Source of the DNA: a virus
Virus genome (UHGV): UHGV-0014568
DNA: 37,204 nucleotides
Reading direction: 5' to 3' (one strand)
The translations under genes were made by a program, and so were the position numbers. Shown piece by piece: positions 14,969 through 35,027 of this stretch. The notes beneath the pieces are model-generated. The model did no database searches, was not told where the DNA came from, and saw only the letters and a program-made list of their open reading frames with translations. How positions within the stretch are numbered: the first letter of the stretch is position 1; every line of letters begins with the position of its first letter.

Positions 14969-15312
14969 ACTATTAATTTCGTTTCATGCCAGCCTTTAGT
15001 CACCCAGCATTGCGAGTCACCATTACACGGGCATGAATTAACTGGAACTCTCTCGCCGCACTTACCGCAACGTTTTCTGCTGATCGATTTTATACGCCCG
15101 CGCACACGTGCATCATCCTGGCGGATCAGCAGCGCGATGTACTCGGCCATTTCATAGGGATCGCGACCAGGGCGCCGGGCGGCGCAGTTCCGCGCCAGCA
15201 TTTCCTGCTCCTGCTTATCCAGCACCAGTTCAATTTTGCGCTCACCGGCGGCGGACTGCCGAGCGCGCTGCGCGGCTTTGCGTTCTGCGGGGGATTTAGC
15301 CACGAACCGCAC
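14965..15312 (-). CDS. Arg-rich protein with C-terminal Cys cluster, unknown function
   Basis: 115-aa ORF (GTG start); C-terminal CGKCG...CPCNG zinc-binding-like motif; start uncertain; overlaps the small ORF 15296..15418. Confidence 0.3.
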   Translation of the reverse strand: MRFVAKSPAERKAAQRARQSAAGERKIELVLDKQEQEMLARNCAARRPGRDPYEMAEYIALLIRQDDARVRGRIKSISRKRCGKCGERVPVNSCPCNGDSQCWVTKGWHETKLIV

Positions 15313-15418
15313 TCCACGCCAGATTGATTAATGACTCCCAGGTAATATAAACCCGGATACCAGCAGCCAGGCCGAAACCAATCACCATGGCATAAAGCAG
15401 AGCGTTGCACTTGTTCAT
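15296..15418 (-). CDS. Possible 40-aa single-pass membrane peptide
   Basis: ATG shares one base with the upstream stop (TGATG); hydrophobic core ALLYAMVIGFGLAAGI; below the ORF-track size cutoff; conflicts with the 115-aa ORF start. Confidence 0.25.
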   Translation of the reverse strand: MNKCNALLYAMVIGFGLAAGIRVYITWESLINLAWSAVRG

Positions 15419-15999
15419 CAGTTCACCTCCTGCGGTGGTTCCGGTAGCGGCATCCAGTGAGTTGAGCTCTCTACTTCGACGCCGTCTTTGTCCACAAAAG
15501 CCATCTTATTCCCGCCACGAGTGGGGCAAAAAACCTTATCCCAAGAACCGGGGAATACATTACCGAGATCATCGAGAAGAATCACATCGCAATATTCAGC
15601 AGGAACTGCATCACTACAGCTTATCCAGCCAGCCGGAGTTACCGGAGGGGTACCCGATAGCGCATTCTGCTCCAGTGATGCTTTTACAAACCACGCTGCC
15701 TGAACTATTACGCCATGAATCCAGCGCAAATCAGCATCGCGATCGTTCTTTTTCATCTTTTCACCACTTAAAGCCTGGCTTATGTGGCTGCATACTAGGT
15801 TTTCATGTAATTCCTTCGCATCCTCAATGGTGAAACCACCAGGTAAACGCCCCGGAGTTACCGGAGAGTTGCCAGCCTTGCGCATGGCAATTTCCACGAT
15901 TTCAACCATATCTTCTGGTGGAATTTTACAATGCTGGCCAATATGCCTCTGCTGTCTGGCATACTCGAGGATGTGCTCCAGCTTGGTTCGATTAATCAT
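15418..15999 (-). CDS. DUF551-like phage protein
   Basis: 193-aa ORF; C-terminal GWISCSDAVPAEYCDVILLDDLGN...THWMPLPEPP matches my recollection of the DUF551 pattern. Confidence 0.45.
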   Translation of the reverse strand: MINRTKLEHILEYARQQRHIGQHCKIPPEDMVEIVEIAMRKAGNSPVTPGRLPGGFTIEDAKELHENLVCSHISQALSGEKMKKNDRDADLRWIHGVIVQAAWFVKASLEQNALSGTPPVTPAGWISCSDAVPAEYCDVILLDDLGNVFPGSWDKVFCPTRGGNKMAFVDKDGVEVESSTHWMPLPEPPQEVN

Positions 16000-16442
16000 G
16001 ATTTATCTCCCTTAAGCATGGCGGCGCGGCAGGCTTCATCAACCATAGCTTCTACGTTTTCGAGAAGTACGTAACTGTACTGCTGCCCGCTAACCCATTC
16101 TTTTCTGCGAGGTAATGCGCGTGGGTCCGCTACAATGGCTCGCAAACGTTCCAGAACAGCTGGTACTGCTGGCGCTGGCGTGGCAGTGTATAGCGCCGTT
16201 GTACCCATCGGCTTATGATTGCATTTCGGGCAAACGTCGTTCTCTCGCCAGTCCTCAATTGTTTCCCACCCGCAGCGACAACATTCGTAACTGATGTAGT
16301 CAGGTTCTGCCTCCAGCGATGCCAGAGCAATCCGTGCCAGCTCTTCCGCTTCTTCTGCTGGCAGTACAACGTTGCTACCAGGTCCGTATGTTTCGCGCCA
16401 CTGCTTGATTGTCAGCAGTCGCTCTTTGGTAATAGTGTTCAT
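15996..16442 (-). CDS. Zinc-ribbon protein, unknown function
   Basis: 148-aa ORF with CCRCG...CPKCNH motif; 4-nt overlaps with both neighbours. Confidence 0.4.
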   Translation of the reverse strand: MNTITKERLLTIKQWRETYGPGSNVVLPAEEAEELARIALASLEAEPDYISYECCRCGWETIEDWRENDVCPKCNHKPMGTTALYTATPAPAVPAVLERLRAIVADPRALPRRKEWVSGQQYSYVLLENVEAMVDEACRAAMLKGDKS

Positions 16443-16804
16443 GCCGTAGCCCCTTCTTGATATTTTTCAAACCAGAACACAACCGGGTCAGATTTCATTT
16501 CAACCAATCCCATACGAACCAGCGCCTTGCCTTTCCCGGACGCAAGGAATTCACGACGACCATCACTGATAATTCGCCGATAATCTTCCAGGCTACTGCA
16601 ATGCTTGTGCAGATTGCATGGGTGGCATGCCGGAACCATGTTGGATATATCGTCACGATCCTGGTGAAGCATATTTCCATCAAAACGAATGACCGGTTTT
16701 ACATGGTCTGCATGCCACTTTTCGCCAAGTTCGCAGCCGCAATAAGCGCAGCGACCACCAAACTTCATGCGCAGCTCTGCACGTTGTTTTTTCGTCAGTG
16801 CCAT
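16439..16804 (-). CDS. HNH endonuclease
   Basis: CAYCGCEL...HADHVKP...CHPCNLHKH motif set; ATG at 16804 with AAGGAAAG RBS preferred over the longer track ORF (start 16894). Confidence 0.7.
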   Translation of the reverse strand: MALTKKQRAELRMKFGGRCAYCGCELGEKWHADHVKPVIRFDGNMLHQDRDDISNMVPACHPCNLHKHCSSLEDYRRIISDGRREFLASGKGKALVRMGLVEMKSDPVVFWFEKYQEGATA

Positions 16805-16805
16805 A

Positions 16806-17024
16806 TCAGCTTTCCTTATATGGATTAATTTTATTGTGCAGTGTGTTGAACGGGGCCCATACCACGTCGTTATACAATTCAATAACTGGCTCAATTATTT
16901 TCCCGATTGCCCAGACAAAAATTAGCAGGGATATCGGTATCATCAACACGACAAACAGAATGAGAAACAGAAATTCTACAGCCCTGTTTTTTCGCGGATA
17001 TTTTTTTCTGAATAATGTGACCAT
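16806..17024 (-). CDS. Small single-pass membrane protein
   Basis: 72-aa ORF; basic N-terminus followed by hydrophobic stretch LFLILFVVLMIPISLLIFVWAIG. Confidence 0.35.
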   Translation of the reverse strand: MVTLFRKKYPRKNRAVEFLFLILFVVLMIPISLLIFVWAIGKIIEPVIELYNDVVWAPFNTLHNKINPYKES

Positions 17025-17157
17025 TCATTACCGCCCTTCCGGGCGGCCTCCTGATGTTCTGAGGGTACAGAAATCCCTCCGGTTAAGGATTTAATAAAAA
17101 TCACTTCTGATTTAAATTTTCAGTGTTTTGTTGTCATGTGGTTTATCGCCTTTATGC

Positions 17158-17463
17158 TTAAGCCTTATTTCTCAGCCATACACAAACAGGACCATCTTCA
17201 GTGTCATGAATGGAACCAATGAACCAGCCTTCACCTTCCGGGCGCTCCGGTTTCCAGGAGGCAATATCGGGACCATCCGCGTCCAGATTAAAATCATCTT
17301 CATCCATAGTTCTGATGGTCCATTGAAGATTATTTTCCTCCATCCATGCGTTAAACTCTTCCGTTGAAATAAGTTCTCTAGCATCACAGAATTTTTCATA
17401 TTCAGGATGCGTCCAGCAGCCATATTCATCACGTACTACTGGTATTTCTCTAATTTCATTCAT
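17158..17463 (-). CDS. Hypothetical acidic protein
   Basis: 101-aa ORF in the nin-like block; overlaps the upstream gene. Confidence 0.4.
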   Translation of the reverse strand: MNEIREIPVVRDEYGCWTHPEYEKFCDARELISTEEFNAWMEENNLQWTIRTMDEDDFNLDADGPDIASWKPERPEGEGWFIGSIHDTEDGPVCVWLRNKA

Positions 17464-17713
17464 TTCTGTTCCTCCACGTTTTCAGACTTTCACCACAGAA
17501 CGGGCAAAAACACATTGCAACACCACGACCGATATATTGGCCGGAGTGAATTTGAGCAATGTCTAAGCCTGGCTCGCCGGTGTTTATATTCACGCGTTCC
17601 GGGATAAATATGCCTTTACTCTTAAAGGTTGGATTTCCATATTCGAGAGATTTTGCCAAAGCCGCGCACGGTTCTATCTTGTTGCCATTAATTTGGCATT
17701 TTGACTCACTCAC
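17456..17713 (-). CDS. Hypothetical Cys-containing small protein
   Basis: 85-aa ORF with CFCPFCGE motif. Confidence 0.4.
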   Translation of the reverse strand: MSESKCQINGNKIEPCAALAKSLEYGNPTFKSKGIFIPERVNINTGEPGLDIAQIHSGQYIGRGVAMCFCPFCGESLKTWRNRNE

Positions 17714-18288
17714 TGGTTGCCTCCTTTGCGAAGCTGGGCGGCGAATTTCTGTGCCTCTTTCTGGATGAATAGCTTTTTGCTGAAGTTATGGTACTGACCG
17801 AACATCTCCACGCCCTGCGCCCGCAGTTCCGACAGGAAAGCGTCGGTGGCTGGGTGCTCTGTCTGGCTATGCATTGCCCATTCAGATAAGTACTCGAAGC
17901 AACGGCGAAACTCCTGCCAATCACTGCACATGTTTAGGTTTCCGCCTTCACACTCGAACTGGTAATTCTCTAAACGGTCTGCAAACGCTCTGCCATTCTC
18001 GATGGCACCAAGTGGAGTTTCAGACTTCAGCCAAGCATTCTCCGCAGCCAGCGCCGAAAACTTCTCGTGTGCCAACTTAACAGCCGCATCAGCCTGCTTA
18101 ATTGACTCAATCGCTTTCTGGTGGTCTTCGGCCAGCGCATTAGCACGCACCAGTTGCACTTCCAGTTGCGTTGCCAAATCGCTGATCAGCTTTGCCACAC
18201 TGCGCATATCAACGGCACCACATTCTGCTTTCAGTTCCGAAGCCATCTCATGCCCGGCGGAAACTAACCCTTTGATATTACTTTCCAT
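17710..18288 (-). CDS. Hypothetical helical protein
   Basis: 192-aa ORF with a helical, coiled-coil-like N-half; no recognised motif. Confidence 0.4.
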   Translation of the reverse strand: MESNIKGLVSAGHEMASELKAECGAVDMRSVAKLISDLATQLEVQLVRANALAEDHQKAIESIKQADAAVKLAHEKFSALAAENAWLKSETPLGAIENGRAFADRLENYQFECEGGNLNMCSDWQEFRRCFEYLSEWAMHSQTEHPATDAFLSELRAQGVEMFGQYHNFSKKLFIQKEAQKFAAQLRKGGNQ

Positions 18289-18811: not shown

Positions 18812-19612
18812 TTACTTGATAAATCCTGACGCCTTTCCCCGCCTGTATTCCTCCATCAGCCACTGCGCCGGTGTTATTCCCCCCAGGGTGGCGGCGTTAG
18901 GCATACACCCGAAACTTCGCCCTGGTGGATGGTAAACGTCTCTCCCTGTGTCCGGAGGCGTACTCATGGGTTCTGGCTTTGCCTGTATGCTGATCACCGG
19001 ATCGGGTATCTGCTGTCCGGAAGCCACCTTTTTCGCCCAATCATCGAGCAGCCTGCGCGCGTGTTTCTCAACCTCAATCTCGCTAAGCTGGCGCTGATAC
19101 ATTGCACGGCGGGTATCACATACGACCCAGTACATAACCGGATGCCGCCACGGGAATCTTTCGGGACCACCAGGATATAAACTTTTTTCCTTGCTGTACC
19201 GGTGAAACTCCGTCATCACATCGTCAATGGTGACGCCAAGAACCATCTTGCTGTCTTTGCACCACTTGATGAATTGCCCTGGCGACGGCCAGAACGGAGA
19301 ATCACTGGCGCGGGCGTGGCGCATACCAGCAGAAACCTGTTCACGGGTTCGGATCCCCCCTTCGGCAAACGCAGCAATCCACTGCTGTTTTGCAGCAACT
19401 TCCTGCTCTGGCGTCTTCAGGTTGGTTACCACTGCCGCCGGAAACAGTTGTTTCAACTGTTTGAAAAGGGCATCAACAAGCCTCTCTGCTGACATGTTCA
19501 CTACGTTGTCATTGTTGGTGTACTGATGCTCATAACCTGACATGCGAGAAAGGGCCTCTCCGTCACGGTTTTGTATTGCGGTAAAAACGTTGTTCACAAG
19601 AAATCCTCCCAT
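18812..19612 (-). CDS. Replication protein P-like helicase loader
   Basis: 266-aa ORF; segment QWIAAFAEGGIRTREQVSAGMRHARASDSPFWPSPGQFIKWCKD parallels lambda P (QWVLAFRENGITTMEQVNAGMRVARRQNRPFLPSPGQFVAWCRE) from memory. Confidence 0.7.
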   Translation of the reverse strand: MGGFLVNNVFTAIQNRDGEALSRMSGYEHQYTNNDNVVNMSAERLVDALFKQLKQLFPAAVVTNLKTPEQEVAAKQQWIAAFAEGGIRTREQVSAGMRHARASDSPFWPSPGQFIKWCKDSKMVLGVTIDDVMTEFHRYSKEKSLYPGGPERFPWRHPVMYWVVCDTRRAMYQRQLSEIEVEKHARRLLDDWAKKVASGQQIPDPVISIQAKPEPMSTPPDTGRDVYHPPGRSFGCMPNAATLGGITPAQWLMEEYRRGKASGFIK

Positions 19613-20457
19613 GCTTCAGGGCTGTTCCAGTGCGGAACGTTGTTATCAGGTAATGTTGATTGCTTCTGTCTGCTAATCTGCAGCCGCCTTGCCAGCTTCT
19701 GCTCCCACTGTGCCTGATGGTATGCCTTACCCTCAGCCATCCAGTAAATTCTGAACTCTGCAAGTTCCTGTGCCGTTGGCAGACTGTCCAGGTAGATCCC
19801 CTGCAATGAGCTTTTCCGAAGAAAGTCATCTGATGGCTGCCATTGTTCATGCATGACAAATTTGCCTAATTGCCCTGGCCCACCAGGAGGAACAAAGTTA
19901 TTCATCACGGCGTTGTTTGCGCCGGGGTCATGAGGCACAGAATTCCCGTTTTTTGTCCTGCTCTCCCTCTCTTGGTTAAATGACTGGTTATATGACTGGT
20001 TCTGGATCCCGTTTTTGGGATCATTCAACATCCCGTTTTTGGGATCATTCAACATCCCGTTTTTGGGATCATTCAACATCCCGTTTTTGGGATCATTCAA
20101 CATCCCGTTTTTGGGTATATTCCCGTTTTCGGTAACATTACCGTTTTCGGGTTCATTACCCCCTTCCCGGTTGCCTTTAATGTTCCCGTTTTTGGTTATA
20201 TTAAGAGAGAAAACCCGCACTCTTTTCGTCGCTCCCTTTCTCTCTCCGGTATCTGAAATAAGCCCCATTTTCATGAGCGATATAAGCCCGGCCTGCACGG
20301 TTTTTTTATTCAGGCAAGTGTCTTTAACGAGGCGTTCTATGCTGGGGTAGCAGAGGTTATATTCATCGGCTCTGTCAGCCATCGAGAGCAGTATGAGCTT
20401 TAATGATGAGCTGCCTGGATCTGTCTCCCAAGCCCAATCTGTTGCATGTCTGCTCAT
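19594..20457 (-). CDS. Replication initiator (O-like position) with DnaT-like C-terminal domain and internal iteron-encoded repeats
   Basis: 287-aa ORF; C-terminal GKFVMHEQWQPSDDF...YWMAEGKAYHQAQWEQKLARRLQ resembles E. coli DnaT; contains GMLNDPKN x4 encoded by the 24-bp iterons; GGAG RBS. Confidence 0.65.
   Translation of the reverse strand: MSRHATDWAWETDPGSSSLKLILLSMADRADEYNLCYPSIERLVKDTCLNKKTVQAGLISLMKMGLISDTGERKGATKRVRVFSLNITKNGNIKGNREGGNEPENGNVTENGNIPKNGMLNDPKNGMLNDPKNGMLNDPKNGMLNDPKNGIQNQSYNQSFNQERESRTKNGNSVPHDPGANNAVMNNFVPPGGPGQLGKFVMHEQWQPSDDFLRKSSLQGIYLDSLPTAQELAEFRIYWMAEGKAYHQAQWEQKLARRLQISRQKQSTLPDNNVPHWNSPEAWEDFL
20006..20101. repeat. Four perfect tandem 24-bp direct repeats (ATCCCGTTTTTGGGATCATTCAAC), probable replication-origin iterons
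   Basis: Exact head-to-tail copies at 20006, 20030, 20054 and 20078, followed by degenerate CCCGTTTT(C/T)GG copies to about 20215 and preceded by a TGACTGGTT x2 repeat; all inside the replication initiator gene. Confidence 0.7.
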
Positions 20458-20472
20458 GATTAATCTCCGCTA

Positions 20473-20673
20473 TCAGCTTGAATGTTGTGGGGAGGAATTA
20501 ATCATGATCTGCTTAATCTCTGCCCTGATGCGACGGTTTGATTCCATGGTGCACTCAACACAGTGTCCGTTGTAAACCCAGCGCTCACTGTCATGTCCGT
20601 GCTTACATGGTTTTCCGGTGTAGTAGCGTTTAAGTCCGCGCTTTGCGGCATCAATACGTGTAATGATTTCCAT
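20473..20673 (-). CDS. Small Cys/His-containing protein at the cII-equivalent position
   Basis: 66 aa from ATG 20673 (track gives TTG 20736); YTGKPCKHGH...NGHCVEC motif; no clear RBS, low confidence. Confidence 0.3.
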   Translation of the reverse strand: MEIITRIDAAKRGLKRYYTGKPCKHGHDSERWVYNGHCVECTMESNRRIRAEIKQIMINSSPQHSS

Positions 20674-20823: not shown

Positions 20824-21054
20824 TCATGAGTAGAAGAAGTATGCCAGTTCTGCTTTTGAGCGCAGCCATTGTCTTGTTTTACAGGCTTTAAAAAGCCCAT
20901 TCATCAATACCTTACCTGGCATTTTGCGCTTACCTGTTAAGTGAGTCTGGATATAGTGACTCGTCGTTCCGGCTTCCTGTGCGAAGGCTTCACGCTCATC
21001 CGGAGTAAGTGCAAGCCAGTGCTTTTTGAAATCGAAATGTCCGTTATCGCTCAT
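20824..21054 (-). CDS. Cro-like small HTH regulator
   Basis: 76-aa ORF divergent from the repressor gene across an operator-rich gap; HTH-like segment LTPDEREAFAQEAGTTSHYIQTHLTGKR; first gene of the long minus-strand series. Confidence 0.5.
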   Translation of the reverse strand: MSDNGHFDFKKHWLALTPDEREAFAQEAGTTSHYIQTHLTGKRKMPGKVLMNGLFKACKTRQWLRSKAELAYFFYS

Positions 21055-21091
21055 AGCTATTGCCTGATATTTATTTCAGATAATAAATATT

Positions 21092-21185
21092 CACCCATAA
21101 GGTAACAAAAATCAAGGATAGTTACCTATGGGGTGCATTTACCTGTTGGGTAATATTGCTTTAAATTGAATCATCTACTGATTCA
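21092..21185. promoter_or_regulatory. OR-like divergent operator/promoter region
   Basis: Inverted pair CACCCATAAGGTAAC (21092-21106) and GTTACCTATGGGGTG (21121-21135), exact TTACCTGTTGGGTAA (21139-21153), and a separate perfect palindrome TGAATCA-N5-TGATTCA (21167-21185). Confidence 0.6.
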
Positions 21186-21208: not shown

Positions 21209-21793
21209 ATGAAAAGTATCCAGGACGTCCGCAGGCAAAATCTCAACGACTTGATCGACCGTGAATTCAATGGTGTTCAGACGCGGATGGCAGAAAAACT
21301 TGGAACTCAGGCAAATCTGGTAAACCGCTGGGCTCTTGGCAAGAAGGTTATCGGCGACCAGGTTGCGCGAAAAATTGAAGCTGCCGCCAATAAACCCCGT
21401 AACTGGCTTGATATCGATCGCTCGCTTTCTCAAGAAGGTTTTCAGCCTGTCGGACCAAGCGACATTGGTCAGCTGGCGGCTCACAACCTGGAACGCTGGA
21501 TGAGCGAAAGCCGAGACCTTTCAACGCAGGGAAAACTTCACCGCGCATCCGGCGTCGCCCAGGTGACAATCAGCCGCCTGTTAAACAATGAGGTCAGCGT
21601 TTCCATTTCCACCCTGGAGAATGTTGCATCCGCATTCGGGCGTCACGGCTATGAATTACTGATTCACCCGCACGACCCTGCGACTATCAACTATGATCGC
21701 TCGCGCTACGCATTGTTACCTGAAACAGAGAAGGCAAAGATCGAAAGTTACATTGAATTTGTCATCAACCAGAACGAAAAAAGCAAACAATAA
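21209..21793 (+). CDS. Prophage repressor candidate (CI position) with two XRE-type HTH domains and no peptidase domain
   Basis: 194-aa ORF between the OR-like and OL-like regions, with its own terminator; two HTH-like segments (QTRMAEKLGTQANLVNRW and GVAQVTISRLLNNE); no Ser/Lys S24 autopeptidase motifs seen. Confidence 0.5.
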   Translation: MKSIQDVRRQNLNDLIDREFNGVQTRMAEKLGTQANLVNRWALGKKVIGDQVARKIEAAANKPRNWLDIDRSLSQEGFQPVGPSDIGQLAAHNLERWMSESRDLSTQGKLHRASGVAQVTISRLLNNEVSVSISTLENVASAFGRHGYELLIHPHDPATINYDRSRYALLPETEKAKIESYIEFVINQNEKSKQ

Positions 21794-21850: not shown

Positions 21851-21927
21851 TTACCTTACGGGTAATTTTTTTAACTCATATCTATTGACAACAAACCAAA
21901 TACGCATAATTATTACCTAAACGGTAA
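21851..21927 (+). promoter_or_regulatory. OL/PL-like promoter with two TTACC-N5-GGTAA operators
   Basis: TTACCTTACGGGTAA (21851-21865), -35 TTGACA (21885-21890), CATAAT-like -10 region and TTACCTAAACGGTAA (21913-21927) just before the first gene of the plus-strand operon. Confidence 0.55.
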
Positions 21928-29168: not shown

Positions 29169-31907
29169 TTATTGGATAATATGGAACGAATTTTTAACAT
29201 GAATAGTAGCAGAATTATTACTATTATTAATTAAAGCGATCTTCCCGCCAGAATATCCGGGAACAGCCTGTTGAACAGTTCCGCCAGTAGTGGGTTTAAC
29301 TGTTATTGTAGGTACTGACCCTGCCAGGCCAGCTGTAAGCTTGACCTCACCTGTCACATCGCAAGTCAATGTGCCGACAACAGTAAGAGCGCCGAAAAGC
29401 ATTGTTGAAATCTCAATTCCAGTTGAAGTTCTCTTTGCAACAACTCCGCTTTGTGAAGTAGGTTTATAGTAAAAAATCACTCCACAGCCAACAGGAATTG
29501 ATGATAAAGCAACGTTTTGAACATTTGGTGATTTAGTTGCACCATACATATCAGGAGATTCATCATTAGCAGTTTCTGCCGCATACGACAATAACAAATC
29601 AGCTCTATCCCTTACCTGCCCATATACTCCTTTTATTGCATTTTCAGCAAGATACACTGAAGCGCTTTGCGAGCATGACTCTTTCAAATCTCCTCTAAAC
29701 AACAGCCCTGGTGGATATACTTTTGATGGCGTACCATCGTAAATAATCTCAATCTGATTAAGTCCTTTTTTAAGGGTTCCAAGGTGAGTGGTTAGTTTGT
29801 TTGTAAACGATGAGACGCCATTACTAGCGATATTACCAGAACTAAATGCTGTATTACGGATATCTTGTTGTCGGATAGAGATGGAGTTAGCGCGACCGTT
29901 TGCAACATATGTTGGGTTATACGGCTCAAAAACAACCAATGATATATCAGAAGTTTCACACCAGACAAAATATCGTATGGTTAAATTTTCAGTAGCTGGG
30001 TAAACCACGCCCCAGCCAGTTAGACCATTTAGATACGTGTCTCCACTCAACCGCTCCATACCAACGCTGTACGTGCTACCAGACGGGAAGCCAAATGGCT
30101 GGATATCATTATCAACTGTTGGTACGAAGTTATTCCCTTTTTTCGCAGTGTGGACTCTATACGGCATAACAGCCTTTGCTGCATATGCGCCGATATATTG
30201 ATGGCCCAGAGGAGCAAAATGCGTGCTATCAAAAGTGCCATCTGTCGGGCGCCGAGCAATATCTTCAAGCGTATAGCTTCCGAGGTCTCTGTACATCTCG
30301 GTTACTGGCTGAGAGAGATCGAGGAACTCTACCGCAGGGAACAGGCGTTCAATATGCTTCTTAATTGATGCTTCGAGAGCCGCCCATTGTGAGCCATTCT
30401 GGTTCATTGAAACAACGCAGACGGCACATCCGTAACCCCATGCTTTACGGATAAACTGCTCAAAACGGAATAAATACTGATCGAACCCTAACGTATCAAG
30501 TTGTCCGTTATCGTTAACGCCCATGGATATGAAGCAAACGTCTGGCGGCACGTTTCCGTATGCAGTGTTTTTGAAGAAGCCATGGTCAAAGTTACGATTC
30601 GCCCACCCGTCAATGAGTCGCTTTCCAGAAGATGCGCAGTTTTCAGCCTTAAATATGTAAGCACTATTTTTAGTAAATCGGTTAAGCCAGTCGGTAAATG
30701 TGCGAAACCAAGAACCTGAACCACCATTACTATTGTGATCGTAGTTAGTTGAAGATAGGTCACCATTAGAATCGGTTGGATTAGCTGACCATCCAGCACC
30801 GTATGCGCCGTCAGTGATTGAATCACCAACGATACCAACACGACATAGCGTATTGCGGCGAGCGAACTGGTTTATTACGTTGAATGCAGTGTATTTACTG
30901 CCATGAGTTGCCAATCCAACATCAAATATGTGCTCATTCCCCCATGGATCTCTGGTGAGAATTTTTCCTTCACCGATAAATTTTGTCACATCATCATCTG
31001 GCAGGAAATTGCAGCGTAGCTGAACATCCTTCGGAACATAAATTTGTCCAGTATAAGCGTATACTGCAGCGCGGTTATCTGTCTCGCTATCAATGACTAC
31101 CCCAGGAACATATTTCACGGCTAATGCATCATTGCGATATTTACCGTTGCTTAGCTCTGTCCTTAATACAGCATCACCTACACCTATCCATGCCCCTGGA
31201 CCAACACCACCAGTAGTGGTAGGAGTTGATCCAGGCGGAACTACTTTGGGCAGTGGCCCATCCCATCTGTAGTATTCGCCGTTGCTTTCCCAGAGAAGAA
31301 CATCGTTAAGATAGATGATGGTATTACCCAACTCAAAAGATTTCTTCGTGTTATAGCCATACAATCCATTTTCTAAGGTTTCAATAATGGTGCTAAGTAT
31401 GGTACTAAATTTTGCATAAAGATCATCAGTATATTTTTTTGTAGCAGCATCTTGGGGAAGAGATGGATCACGAAGATTTCTAATATAATTTGAAAGCGCG
31501 TCATAAAAAATTGCTACGTCATTTGGCTTTCTTAAAGCCAACTTATCATTTCTTAATGATTGTTGAATGAGCATAGTAAGTTTATCAAACGCATCCTCAT
31601 GTACCTCAGCGAAGAACTTACCCTGATTACGTAAATCCGTTTCCTGAGTAGCTGGTAGTTCTCGTGATATAGATATCTGATGACCGTTAGCCAACGCCTT
31701 CGAGAGAATTACATTACCGCCGTTGTACCCTCCCGCTCCGGTGACGATGTAATCTGTATCAAGAACCAGTACGTTTATATTCTCGCTAATGTCAACAACC
31801 TGTACTACCAGATCTGATTTTTTGAAGATCCTAAATTTGTAAGGGAATGTCGTCGTAACACCATTGCCAGTGTATTCGTTGTGGTTAACTTCGGTTGAGA
31901 CCGTCAT
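29169..31907 (-). CDS. Tailspike/tail fibre with T7-type N-terminal attachment domain and SGNH (GDSL) esterase domain
   Basis: About 912 aa from ATG 31907 with GGAGA RBS (track ORF starts at 31949); N-terminus VNHNEYTGNGVTTTFPYKF resembles podovirus fibre N-terminal domains; SGNH blocks GDSITDG (Ser codon at 30819-30821), GVNDNG and DSTHF. Confidence 0.7.
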   Translation of the reverse strand: MTVSTEVNHNEYTGNGVTTTFPYKFRIFKKSDLVVQVVDISENINVLVLDTDYIVTGAGGYNGGNVILSKALANGHQISISRELPATQETDLRNQGKFFAEVHEDAFDKLTMLIQQSLRNDKLALRKPNDVAIFYDALSNYIRNLRDPSLPQDAATKKYTDDLYAKFSTILSTIIETLENGLYGYNTKKSFELGNTIIYLNDVLLWESNGEYYRWDGPLPKVVPPGSTPTTTGGVGPGAWIGVGDAVLRTELSNGKYRNDALAVKYVPGVVIDSETDNRAAVYAYTGQIYVPKDVQLRCNFLPDDDVTKFIGEGKILTRDPWGNEHIFDVGLATHGSKYTAFNVINQFARRNTLCRVGIVGDSITDGAYGAGWSANPTDSNGDLSSTNYDHNSNGGSGSWFRTFTDWLNRFTKNSAYIFKAENCASSGKRLIDGWANRNFDHGFFKNTAYGNVPPDVCFISMGVNDNGQLDTLGFDQYLFRFEQFIRKAWGYGCAVCVVSMNQNGSQWAALEASIKKHIERLFPAVEFLDLSQPVTEMYRDLGSYTLEDIARRPTDGTFDSTHFAPLGHQYIGAYAAKAVMPYRVHTAKKGNNFVPTVDNDIQPFGFPSGSTYSVGMERLSGDTYLNGLTGWGVVYPATENLTIRYFVWCETSDISLVVFEPYNPTYVANGRANSISIRQQDIRNTAFSSGNIASNGVSSFTNKLTTHLGTLKKGLNQIEIIYDGTPSKVYPPGLLFRGDLKESCSQSASVYLAENAIKGVYGQVRDRADLLLSYAAETANDESPDMYGATKSPNVQNVALSSIPVGCGVIFYYKPTSQSGVVAKRTSTGIEISTMLFGALTVVGTLTCDVTGEVKLTAGLAGSVPTITVKPTTGGTVQQAVPGYSGGKIALINNSNNSATIHVKNSFHIIQ

Positions 31908-31961
31908 GTTAAATCTCCAGATAGTCGCAGCACCCGTTGCGCCGCACATCCGGTCATTCTA

Positions 31962-32026
31962 TTACCTGAAAAACCACATATGGATAGATAACCCATAAAT
32001 ACGAACAGATATCACCTTTCAGGTAA
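31962..32026. promoter_or_regulatory. Long-range inverted repeat TTACCTGAAA ... TTTCAGGTAA with AACCACATATG motif between tailspike and the LexA-box gene
   Basis: Half-sites at 31962-31971 and 32017-32026 are exact reverse complements, 45 bp apart; AACCACATATG at 31972-31982. Confidence 0.4.
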
Positions 32027-32063
32027 TTCGCAAAACGTGCTGGATAGCAAACAAATTATTTGA

Positions 32064-32083
32064 TACTGTATAAATATACAGTT
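32064..32083 (+). promoter_or_regulatory. LexA (SOS) box overlapping a promoter
   Basis: TACTGTATAAATATACAGTT is a near-match to the LexA consensus TACTGTATATATATACAGTA; TTGATA -35-like hexamer at 32060-32065; 20 nt upstream of the ATG at 32103. Confidence 0.7.
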
Positions 32084-32102
32084 ATTGCATGGAGAAGATA
32101 AG

Positions 32103-32360
32103 ATGCAGCAGTATCACTATCCACTGGAAGACGGATTTACCGAAAGGATTCACACGCCGGGAGGCGTCAGGTCACTGGTGGAGGGATCGCACTTGATGAA
32201 ATTACTCCGGGATCTCGATAAGGATGGATTTAATGTCGATGGCCCACTTGCCGAACTGACTGCACTGATTAACTACGTCACCAGCTCACAGATGTCTATG
32301 CAGGATCTGCAAACACATCTCGACTATTGTGCCGAACAATTGCGAAAACAAACCACATAA
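32103..32360 (+). CDS. Small SOS-regulated protein, candidate antirepressor
   Basis: 85 aa from ATG 32103 with GGAGAAG RBS (track's TTG start at 32085 is less likely); opposite orientation to the flanking virion genes; no family recognised. Confidence 0.5.
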   Translation: MQQYHYPLEDGFTERIHTPGGVRSLVEGSHLMKLLRDLDKDGFNVDGPLAELTALINYVTSSQMSMQDLQTHLDYCAEQLRKQTT

Positions 32361-32382
32361 AGAAAAGGCCGCGAAAGCGGCC
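32351..32382 (-). terminator. Terminator-like hairpin GGCCGC-GAAA-GCGGCC with minus-strand U-rich tail
   Basis: Perfect 6-bp GC stem at 32367-32382; TTTTCTTTATG follows on the minus strand (end of internal-virion-protein transcript); no T-run on the plus side. Confidence 0.45.
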
Positions 32383-32383
32383 T

Positions 32384-32395
32384 GTGACATGTCAC
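32384..32395. repeat. 12-bp perfect palindrome GTGACATGTCAC (copy 3 of 3)
   Basis: Exact palindrome abutting the GC hairpin between two convergent genes. Confidence 0.8.
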
Positions 32396-32402
32396 GCTCA
32401 CG

Positions 32403-32543
32403 TTATGACAAACCTATGTACCCTGCCACACCAGATAATATCAAAACAACTGCAACAGCAAATTCACCATCACCAATGATACATTTACGGTTCATAACGC
32501 CAAGTGCAACAAGCGCAAACACAACAAGAATAAAAGCAATCAT
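32403..32543 (-). CDS. Possible 46-aa two-helix membrane peptide
   Basis: ATG at 32543 ten nt after the 824-aa gene stop, AGGA-type RBS; MIAFILVVFALVALGV...FAVAVVLILSGVAGYIGLS; below the track cutoff. Confidence 0.3.
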   Translation of the reverse strand: MIAFILVVFALVALGVMNRKCIIGDGEFAVAVVLILSGVAGYIGLS

Positions 32544-32552
32544 TTCTCATCC

Positions 32553-35027
32553 TTATTGCGGAGTGACATCCTGCGGTCGCCACCAGTATGTCTGATTAAA
32601 CTCTTTCTTCGAACGTTGCTCCATTTTACGCAAATAGCCTGGTGAAAAATACTCCTGCATCTGGTTAAAGATCATATGATCGAGAGCCGCCTTCAAGTAC
32701 CAGAGATTAGCACCTGGCATCAGCCCCTTCCCAAGCTTAACCAGATCACCACCAGTCTGCTCATTCTTCCCTTCCACAGCATTTAACGGTATGCCCTGAG
32801 CAATCTTCACTACGTCATCAACCAGACCAGCTACCGGGCCAAGCATCGACGCCAGCGCGCCGCTTCCGTACCTAGTGTGATCTGACAATAAAAAGTCACC
32901 GTAAAGGCCAAGACCACCACCTTTCAGTAGAGCACCAAGCCAAAATTTAGCAGCATCTTCCCCCGTCATCTCGCGAGGATTACGACCAGACGCAAGGTCG
33001 TTAAGTTGCTGCGACAAAGCGCCAAGAATGGTCGTACTGGCAATAAACGTCGCAATATATGCCGCACGCCCACCAGCAGACGGCATCCCCATAGCGCGTG
33101 ACCAGTGACGCATAACCACCGAGATAGGGAACGATTTAAACAGGAAAACACTTCTCGTTAATTCACCTTTCCATGTTCCACGCTGAATACCAGAACCTGT
33201 TATCAGTTGCTCACGTGCGCCAGGAGTGATGACCGCCATATCCACTTCTTCGGTCACCGCCCCGAGCAGTTTACGCATTGCCTCAAATTTCACGCGTTCA
33301 GGCTCACCAAGATGTTTAACTGCTGAATCAGGGATACGCATAATGCTTTCCGGTGTCAGCATCGTATTATTACCGTTACCCCAGTCCTCCTGTTGCGCCA
33401 GCTTCCATACGCTCCAGTCTGTGTCAGTAATCCCTTTGCTTTTCAGGATACGAAAATCAGAGTAATCGAGGCTACGAAGGTCTGGTGTCCGTGACACTAC
33501 TTCTCCCAGGCTTCCCATCATAGTTACGCCATAGGCGCGCTTGTGCGCATCTGACCATGCTGTAAGCCCACTGGCACGCATTACCGCCGTTGCCGCCCAA
33601 CGAGACACTGACGGCCCCATATTATCCATCGCCCAGCGGTTAACGCTGCCAAGTAGAGATTCCATCGCCAGACCAGCGCGGCGCGCCCGCGCAAGTTCTG
33701 TACGGTTCGTTGGGTCCATAGCTTCAAGCTGGTTGCGGAATAACTGGTTCATTGGAAGGTTGGTAACCTTCGCAGACAGATACATGGTTCCAAGATCAGA
33801 GAACGATGACAGCAACGCGGATCCGAGTCTGCTGGCAACCAGCCAGTTGCGGATATTGTCAGACCATCGCGCGATATGCGGATTCGCTACAGGCTGTGTC
33901 TTTCCGGAAATAAAGTTGTACAGATTCTCTGTGTTGTTCGCCAGCCGCTCGACTTTACCGGTTTTACTCGGGTTAGCTGTTGCCGTTTCTGCCTTCACCT
34001 GATCAAGAAGAGAGCGGAAAACATGATCGGGGTTTGGGCCATATGTTTCCACCAGTGCAATATCTTTACTGATACCTTCCAGGTGACCGACCATGATTTC
34101 CCATAGAGAGCGATCGCCATAAAGTTGCTGATATTGCAGATAGGAATCTGCATCTTTGAAATGTATCTGTCGTGATGCATTACCACGGTTAGCACGTGCG
34201 CCGGAAATTCGCATTCCGGTATCAGTAAGCTTATTCAGCCCACCAGTAGCGATCGTGTTATAAGCCTCTCCAAGAAATGCAGACAACTCGGCATCGTTCA
34301 TCAGTTGTCCATCGGCTCGGGTATAATATTTGCGATCCAGCTTACCTATAACATCGCTAACCCACTTATCCTTTGATACCGCCCCAACCTTTTCCATAGA
34401 ATGATGTTGAGGGATCCCCCAGTTTTCGAGATAGCCAATGTCCCCACCAGCATCATTAAACCGGCGGCGCAGCAGCTCTGTAACTTCTCTCCACGCCTTA
34501 GCACCTTTTCTTGCTTTAGCATTGCCAGTATTTTGCCCTCGCATTTCATATACCAGGTCACGCACGCCAGCTTCATCTTCAAACAGGCCAAAAAAGCGAG
34601 GATCAACTGCTTCAAATGCCTCTTGCAATTGACTCAATGCATAATCACGAGTGGCTTTTGTTCTGGACTCAACAGAGAGGAAATTCGATTTACCGTCTGC
34701 ATTAAAAGCAATAGTACGGTTAAGAGCGCCAAGCTTCCCATCAGCCCCTTGATAGCTATTGATAAATTTATCCAATCTCTGACGTGCGGCTATAGTGAGG
34801 GCCACACGACGTTTCTTTAATGCCGCTTCTCGCTGTAATTCTTCAGATGCCAATTGTGCTGCACGATATAGCCGCTCTGATTCGGGAAGTTGTCTCCACG
34901 ACATCGGGTCATCACGAGCAATGGAGCGCATATTTCGATAAATGCGGTCTTCAATGTTCTGTATTTCTCGCGCCGTTAACGTGCGCTGCGCCGCCTGCTG
35001 GACCGCTTGTATACATTCCTGTCTCAT
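32553..35027 (-). CDS. Large internal virion (core/ejection) protein
   Basis: 824-aa ORF upstream of the tailspike; large mixed helical protein; role inferred from position. Confidence 0.45.
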   Translation of the reverse strand: MRQECIQAVQQAAQRTLTAREIQNIEDRIYRNMRSIARDDPMSWRQLPESERLYRAAQLASEELQREAALKKRRVALTIAARQRLDKFINSYQGADGKLGALNRTIAFNADGKSNFLSVESRTKATRDYALSQLQEAFEAVDPRFFGLFEDEAGVRDLVYEMRGQNTGNAKARKGAKAWREVTELLRRRFNDAGGDIGYLENWGIPQHHSMEKVGAVSKDKWVSDVIGKLDRKYYTRADGQLMNDAELSAFLGEAYNTIATGGLNKLTDTGMRISGARANRGNASRQIHFKDADSYLQYQQLYGDRSLWEIMVGHLEGISKDIALVETYGPNPDHVFRSLLDQVKAETATANPSKTGKVERLANNTENLYNFISGKTQPVANPHIARWSDNIRNWLVASRLGSALLSSFSDLGTMYLSAKVTNLPMNQLFRNQLEAMDPTNRTELARARRAGLAMESLLGSVNRWAMDNMGPSVSRWAATAVMRASGLTAWSDAHKRAYGVTMMGSLGEVVSRTPDLRSLDYSDFRILKSKGITDTDWSVWKLAQQEDWGNGNNTMLTPESIMRIPDSAVKHLGEPERVKFEAMRKLLGAVTEEVDMAVITPGAREQLITGSGIQRGTWKGELTRSVFLFKSFPISVVMRHWSRAMGMPSAGGRAAYIATFIASTTILGALSQQLNDLASGRNPREMTGEDAAKFWLGALLKGGGLGLYGDFLLSDHTRYGSGALASMLGPVAGLVDDVVKIAQGIPLNAVEGKNEQTGGDLVKLGKGLMPGANLWYLKAALDHMIFNQMQEYFSPGYLRKMEQRSKKEFNQTYWWRPQDVTPQ

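Follow-up and report, generated by a model that had tools for sequence, protein, structure and literature searches.

A LexA-box-preceded ortholog of the SPC32H antirepressor gene and a probable Rep/Ant/LexA switch in a phiV10-like Uetakevirus genome

Our analysis of the virus genome UHGV-0014568 (37,204 nucleotides; this whole stretch of DNA is referred to here as the window) revealed an antirepressor gene, ant, preceded by a LexA box, and the lysis-lysogeny switch of this phage is very probably a Rep/Ant/LexA circuit of the type known from phage SPC32H. What was observed here comprises the box and the gene, the orthology of Ant and of Rep, the shared gene order, the conservation of the box and the joint occurrence of Ant and Rep in phage records. 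LexA control, the binding of Ant to Rep and the disassembly mechanism come from work on SPC32H, as described in PMC7380047, PMC9638917 and PMC9986798 and summarised in a bioRxiv preprint (10.1101/2025.11.27.690993). According to these sources, the SPC32H switch was originally described by Kim & Ryu (2013, J Virol 87:11775) and Kim et al. (2016, PNAS 113:E2480). It has genetic, biochemical and crystallographic support, and ant expression in SPC32H is reported to be LexA dependent and needed for prophage induction (PMC7380047). All testable features place the gene in the window within the SPC32H Ant family, and the window represents the E. coli (phiV10-like) counterpart of this established switch.

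The window is the complete genome of a phiV10-like temperate podophage of the genus Uetakevirus. Its ends, positions 1 and 37204, are adjacent in phiV10 (14683/14684), and it thus constitutes a complete, circularly permuted and reverse-oriented genome and not a fragment of an integrated prophage. It differs from phiV10 in a swapped tailspike, in its early-gene block and in the O-acetyltransferase gene oac of phiV10, which has no counterpart in the window. The tailspike (29169-31907, minus strand) joins an N-terminus of the epsilon15/phiV10 type to a body resembling G7C gp63.1, with the domains Tail_spike_N, Gp63_3rd_G7C, a sub-threshold GDSL-like lipase/acylhydrolase and G7C_GBD. These domain matches suggest a G7C-like SGNH esterase of the O-antigen deacetylase type. 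The early-gene block at 15302-18131 is unlike that of phiV10 and includes the genes of a DUF551 protein (15418-15999, minus strand) and an HNH endonuclease (16439-16894, minus strand). Elsewhere in the window, 4.6 perfect tandem copies of the 24-bp unit ATCCCGTTTTTGGGATCATTCAAC are found at 20006-20115 (and 20105-20160). These repeats are located inside the gene of a 287-aa replication initiator (19594-20457, minus strand), where they encode PKNGMLND. They have the appearance of origin iterons embedded in an initiator gene, an arrangement known from lambda O.

The elements of the proposed switch are as follows.

32103-32360, plus strand: ant, ortholog of SPC32H ant, encoding 85 aa plus stop, with its ATG at 32103
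32064-32083: LexA (SOS) box, TACTGTATAAATATACAGTT
32041-32069, plus strand: putative ant promoter, with −35 TGGATA at 32041-46, a 17-bp spacer, TG at 32061-62 and −10 TACTGT at 32064-69
32091-32094, plus strand: GGAG core of the Shine-Dalgarno sequence, 8 nt ahead of the ATG
32011-32027: ATCACCTTTCAGGTAAT, a palindrome resembling the Rep operator, between the tailspike gene and ant
32366-32383: GC-rich hairpin found by a terminator scan between the convergent ant and 46-aa membrane-protein genes, with its T-run on the minus strand
21209-21793, plus strand: rep, encoding the presumed target of Ant, 194 aa, matching chain A of PDB 5D50

The ant gene is read from the plus strand amid minus-strand virion genes, namely those of the tailspike and of 46-aa, 824-aa and 600-aa proteins, and this opposite orientation had been correctly recognised in the first-pass annotation. 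The mechanical list of open reading frames places the start of the 85-aa frame at an upstream TTG (32085) instead of the ATG at 32103. The same annotation had recognised no family for the protein and had proposed a profile search. This search recovered SPC32H Ant, deposited as chain E of PDB 5D50 and named 'Anti-repressor protein' (E value of 1.3e-47, residues 2-85 aligned with 3-86), together with phrog_450 (E value of 1.4e-47), so that the protein does belong to a family, one that has already been characterised and crystallised. Pfam and NCBIfam hold no model for it and returned only sub-threshold noise (DUF724, UpsF). The Ant protein of the window is 88.1% identical to the annotated ant product of KC911856 (SPC32H) by tblastn and 87% identical in a protein alignment. 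Across the phage collection, the 'ant: anti-repressor protein' of both SPC32H and SPC32N matches it with 88.1% identity, and its counterparts in the E. coli phages phiV10, TL-2011b, ZX5, PAS61 and others, named 'hypothetical proteins', share 97-100% identity with it. A possible second Ant-like copy at 17269-17343 (tblastn, 25 aa, E value of 0.075) falls inside an unrelated 101-aa open reading frame and was judged to be a chance match.

A search of enterobacterial genomes yielded 132 Ant homologues. Of 5,426 complete E. coli genomes, 542 carry the ant locus at 90-99% identity, STEC of serogroups O26, O103 and O157 among them, and all E. coli Uetakevirus records contain it as well. Among the matches listed, every E. 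coli genome record labels the gene 'hypothetical protein', which we attribute to the missing Pfam and NCBIfam models. The practical value of the present analysis lies in the annotation of ant in E. coli genomes and phages; recognising this gene explains how prophages with a non-self-cleaving repressor respond to DNA-damaging antibiotics.

The LexA box at 32064-32083 agrees with the E. coli consensus TACTG(TA)5CAGTA at 18 of 20 positions, and the near-consensus SOS box reported earlier was read as claimed, with 2 of 20 positions off consensus. It is the sole site within three mismatches of the LexA consensus in the 37.2-kb window (0.00 expected); for the null, 100 dinucleotide-preserving shuffles were scanned, and none contained a site within this limit. 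The looser core CTGT-N8-ACAG occurs in three copies in the window, compared with 0.47 expected, and just one of the three, again that at 32064-32083, combines the AT-rich spacer with TA flanks. The box had been placed 20 nt upstream of the open reading frame: its upstream position holds, with 19 nt separating it from the ATG.

The sequence preceding ant was aligned in two sets, one of 10 phages and one of 14 loci, the latter adding prophages of Scandinavium, Pluralibacter, Enterobacter asburiae and Klebsiella oxytoca and a metagenomic contig. In the 14 loci, which cover Escherichia, Salmonella, Enterobacter, Klebsiella, Scandinavium and Pluralibacter, the LexA box, the Shine-Dalgarno sequence and the ATG are found at constant spacing. 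Although the neighbouring sequence drifts, four elements hold their register: both arms of the LexA box, the GGAG with the ATG, a CTGG..A block located 17 bp upstream of TACTGT, and a TG two bases ahead of TACTGT. Within the box itself, the arms are conserved and the spacer is variable. A perfect CTGT-N8-ACAG is present in 8 of the 14 loci, and the left arm reads ATGT instead of CTGT, with a one-base insertion, in the 6 that form the Klebsiella/Pluralibacter lineage. The ATGT left arm is located as follows.

L006, L007, L008, L019 and L022-L025, about 350-375 of each locus: ATGT left-arm lineage, from the two alignments

Judged by this arm, LexA control may be weakened or lost in the Klebsiella/Pluralibacter sub-lineage and thus in some relatives. 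We also observed that the ATGT variant creates a better −10-like hexamer, TATATG. Between SPC32H and SPC32N, a natural mutant, the right arm of the box changes from CAG to AAG. A single change in the LexA site reportedly makes Ant expression constitutive and SPC32N lytic.

We infer the promoter hexamers of ant from the conserved blocks and by analogy with promoter p95 of phage 186. The LexA box begins with the putative −10 hexamer TACTGT, and LexA bound to the box would thus cover both the −10 region and the transcription start. The CTGG..A, T.TG.TA and TGT elements of the putative promoter are invariant in the 14 loci. A scan of 31900-32600 for the sigma-70 consensus called no plus-strand promoter, and an Rfam search of 31700-32700 at E≤1 returned no match. 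The ribosome-binding site had been described as strong; we consider it adequate, not exceptional, with a GGAG core that is invariant in the 14 related loci. Downstream of ant, the hairpin at 32366-32383 resembles a terminator that would serve the virion operon, and the equivalent stem-loop is annotated as a rho-independent terminator in the epsilon15 record. Only the minus strand carries the T-run, so it is uncertain whether the ant transcript terminates there, and ant transcripts may read through antisense into the virion operon.

The presumed target of Ant, the Rep repressor, aligned with chain A of 5D50 ('Repressor') over residues 1-190 of 194 (E value of 3.5e-42). Rep contains an HTH-like region at approximately residues 20-61 and a Pfam HTH_3 match at 106-147, HTH families being its sole Pfam matches, and no Peptidase_S24 domain was found by Pfam in its 194 residues even at E≤1. 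These matches and the end-to-end alignment with the peptidase-free 5D50 chain A uphold the earlier description of a repressor with two HTH regions and no S24 domain; a cleavable peptidase domain, the feature that would have spoken against that description, was not found. PMC9986798 divides SPC32H Rep into an N-terminal domain that binds DNA, a dimerisation domain in the middle and a C-terminal domain for tetramerisation and Ant binding. The window Rep shares with SPC32H Rep a three-domain architecture that lacks a peptidase and has an HTH-like middle domain. The two repressors are 42-43% identical overall, and with approximate, author-set domain boundaries the identities between the window and SPC32H are distributed as follows.

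DNA-binding domain: 54% identity
C-terminal domain: 49% identity
Middle domain: 34% identity
Linker: 22% identity

The better conserved domains are those reported to contact Ant or DNA. In addition, the recognition-helix motif NLVNRW is invariant, and the tetramer-interface residues F187 and F190 of SPC32H Rep align with Y181 and F184 of the window Rep. Three clades can be distinguished in the Rep family, with identities of about 43% between them, the corresponding Ant proteins being 61-88% identical. The clade of the window Rep is common to phiV10, Tyrion and BUCT554, and SPC32H Rep belongs to a different one. Ant and the Rep family occur together in all 35 of the 35 Ant-carrying phage records, across all three clades. 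This pattern of sequence conservation fits retained binding of Ant by the window Rep.

The palindrome ATTACC-N5-GGTAAT, allowing up to 2 mismatches, is present in 11 copies in the window, compared with 1.04 expected, and it is probably the operator of Rep. The copies and their main clusters are listed below.

11718, 14845, 14863, 18697, 18759, 21138, 21850, 21912, 26994, 28708 and 32011: 17-bp ATTACC-N5-GGTAAT sites
21089-21154: three operator-like palindromes between rep and a divergent cro-like gene (20824-21054, minus strand)
21850-66 and 21912-28: palindrome pair, 62 bp apart, flanking an early-left promoter-like site
21885-21913: early-left promoter-like site (TTGACA, 17 bp, AATTAT)

A second pair spaced by exactly 62 bp (18697/18759) is found beyond the replication genes, and the sequence ahead of the small terminase gene holds additional copies. 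Despite a Rep identity of only about 43%, this layout is kept in SPC32H, Tyrion and BUCT711: the cluster of the 21089-21154 type is present in all three, and the 62-bp pair downstream of rep in SPC32H and Tyrion. The equivalent palindromes of epsilon15, including the ortholog of the 32011-32027 site, are annotated in its record as 'protein_bind: repressor'. The LexA box follows the site at 32011-32027 at 37 bp, and the spacing of about 55 bp between this site and the centre of the box is the same in all 14 loci, among which the TTACC/GGTAA arms of the site do not vary either. This candidate operator may gate a divergent tailspike promoter or add a Rep input to ant. A leftward tailspike promoter whose spacer would be the operator itself (TTGCGA, 16 bp, TG-n-TATCTG, minus strand) was considered and rejected, its hexamers not being conserved in SPC32H.

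Transferred from SPC32H to the window, the circuit would operate as follows. In the lysogen, a Rep tetramer bound to TTACC-N5-GGTAA palindromes at the early promoters would keep the lytic genes off, and host LexA bound to the box at 32064-32083 would keep ant silent, as the box covers the putative −10 region and transcription start. Having no autoprotease, Rep would not be inactivated by RecA directly. Upon DNA damage, LexA would cleave itself, and the 85-aa Ant protein would be made and assemble into a tetramer. The Ant tetramer would then bind two Rep dimers through the C-terminal tetramerisation domain and also through the N-terminal domains, and the Rep tetramer would be split into dimers that leave the operators, allowing lytic growth of the prophage. 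The first-pass annotation had proposed a LexA-repressed small antirepressor acting on a non-cleaving repressor, which is encoded about 10 kb away. This proposal gains support from orthology with SPC32H, namely the 87-88% identity of Ant, the shared Rep family, the shared gene order and the shared register of the LexA box.

In sister Uetakeviruses, ant is immediately followed, on its own strand, by the gene of a Bro-N protein annotated as 'anti-repressor'.

Tyrion gp20, L016:121-822, minus strand: Bro-N plus an Ant-like C-terminal domain
ZX5 ORF4, L026:1081-1773, minus strand: Bro-N plus an Ant-like C-terminal domain
phiV10p23, L010:19649-20230, minus strand: Bro-N with a truncated Ant-like stretch only

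The C-terminal ~80 residues of Tyrion gp20 and ZX5 ORF4 are homologous to the whole of Ant. Residues 151-232 of Tyrion gp20 share 38% identity with Ant (E value of 2e-19) and match phrog_450 at 1e-34; residues 150-223 of ZX5 ORF4 share 42% identity (E value of 8e-16) and likewise match phrog_450. Pfam gave no Bro-N (PF02498) match in the 85-aa Ant, unlike Tyrion gp20 and phiV10p23, which both have this domain. The module of approximately 1 kb that carries these genes (phiV10 19531-20542) is inserted directly after ant in phiV10 and several relatives, and it is absent from both the window (between 32360 and 32366) and SPC32H. DNA matches in two places per record, at first suspected to reflect a repeat, were traced to this module, which splits the query in phiV10-type genomes. 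ZX5 carries a Rep that is 99.5% identical to that of the window and an identical LexA box. Overexpression of ZX5 ORF4 lowered prophage titres approximately 1000-fold and shifted the phage towards lysis, and the authors took this neighbouring Bro-N protein as 'the' anti-repressor and left the ant gene unnamed (PMC9782041). We regard the ZX5 result as related but indirect experimental support for the coupling of Ant and Rep.

The divergence of Rep raises the question of whether Ant still acts on the repressor of its own phage. With Rep at just 42-43% and Ant at 87-88% identity to their SPC32H counterparts, Ant could have ceased to bind the resident Rep and could act mainly in trans on other Uetakevirus prophages, as in Gifsy-type crosstalk, or persist as a dispensable relic, and prophage induction would then require some other factor. 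Antirepressors that act in trans are on record for Gifsy prophages (PMC3121763), many sister phages encode the second, Bro-N-type Ant-like protein just downstream of ant, and it was this second protein that was tested in ZX5. We nevertheless consider such uncoupling unlikely. The window, like SPC32H, has no Bro-N module, leaving Ant as its only candidate inducer, and a Rep without an S24 domain needs some antirepressor. Moreover, the C-terminal and N-terminal domains are the better conserved parts of Rep, and the joint occurrence of Ant and Rep in every one of the 35 records extends over all three Rep clades. A search of the literature on mitomycin C induction of TL-2011b or PAS61 yielded nothing useful.

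Even less probable, and in our view very improbable, is that the palindrome at 32064-32083 is an AT-rich promoter element and not a working LexA operator, with ant controlled by Rep via the palindrome upstream of it or expressed constitutively at a low level. This reading would draw on the invariant Rep-operator-like palindrome 37 bp upstream of the box and on the replacement of CTGT by ATGT in one sub-lineage. However, an AT-rich element would hardly be expected to match the LexA consensus at 18 of 20 positions when no such site arose in 100 shuffles, nor to conserve its arms while its spacer varies. Furthermore, the LexA box of 186 tum is 19/20 identical to that of SPC32H and is likewise placed over a −10 region, the difference between SPC32H and SPC32N falls in the CAG arm, and LexA control of SPC32H Ant is given in the review literature (PMC7380047).

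The Rep/Ant/LexA circuit remains the preferred reading, and it may be extended. More tentatively, and with some doubt, we propose that ant may be controlled by a two-input switch and that the Ant fold may be a portable Rep-binding module. The layout upstream of ant mirrors that of the early-left promoter, the LexA box taking the position of the promoter-proximal operator, and the Ant fold is also found fused to Bro-N downstream of the ant promoter in the sister phages. If the two-input reading were true, Ant would feed back on its own expression or on that of the tailspike once Rep had been removed.

Among the known repressor systems, Rep falls outside the autocleaving class of lambda CI and LexA, as it has no C-terminal Peptidase_S24 domain. 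The resemblance to coliphage 186 Tum and the Gifsy prophages proposed in the first-pass annotation holds for the shared logic and does not extend to homology with Tum, which is an analogue only. Phage 186 resembles the window in combining a non-cleavable repressor with a small antirepressor whose gene is remote from the immunity region, and in its record the −10 hexamer of p95, the tum promoter, is TACTGT at the start of the LexA box (TACTGTATGTTTATACAGTA), the same hexamer in the same geometry as at 32064-32069. Homology of Ant to Tum was rejected (BLASTP E value of 0.07 with 14/46 identities in a single pairwise comparison), as was that of Rep to 186 CI (E value of 4.9). Tum is a DinI-type protein according to its NCBI record, whereas Ant has no DinI match in Pfam, and 186 is a P2-like myovirus, a type of phage unlike that of the window. 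The antirepressors GfoA and GfhA of Gifsy-1 and Gifsy-3, which are LexA repressed and act against non-cleavable repressors (Lemire et al. 2011, PMC3121763), are likened to Ant by concept; they come from siphovirus prophages.

The closest known system is that of the Uetakevirus SPC32H (PDB 5D50 and 5D4Z; KC911856 ant and rep), whose Ant is 87-88% identical to that of the window over its full length. Both genomes have the gene order tailspike (minus), ant (plus), small membrane protein (minus) and injection protein (minus), both have the LexA box in matching register to the Shine-Dalgarno sequence and the ATG, and both carry TTACC-N5-GGTAA palindromes in the immunity region and upstream of ant. 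The differences are that SPC32H is a Salmonella phage, whereas the window has an E. coli host and a phiV10-like backbone, and that the window Ant is one residue shorter at its N-terminus. Finally, the spacer of the LexA box is ATAAATAT in the window and ATGTTTAT in SPC32H, that of the window being closer to the consensus.
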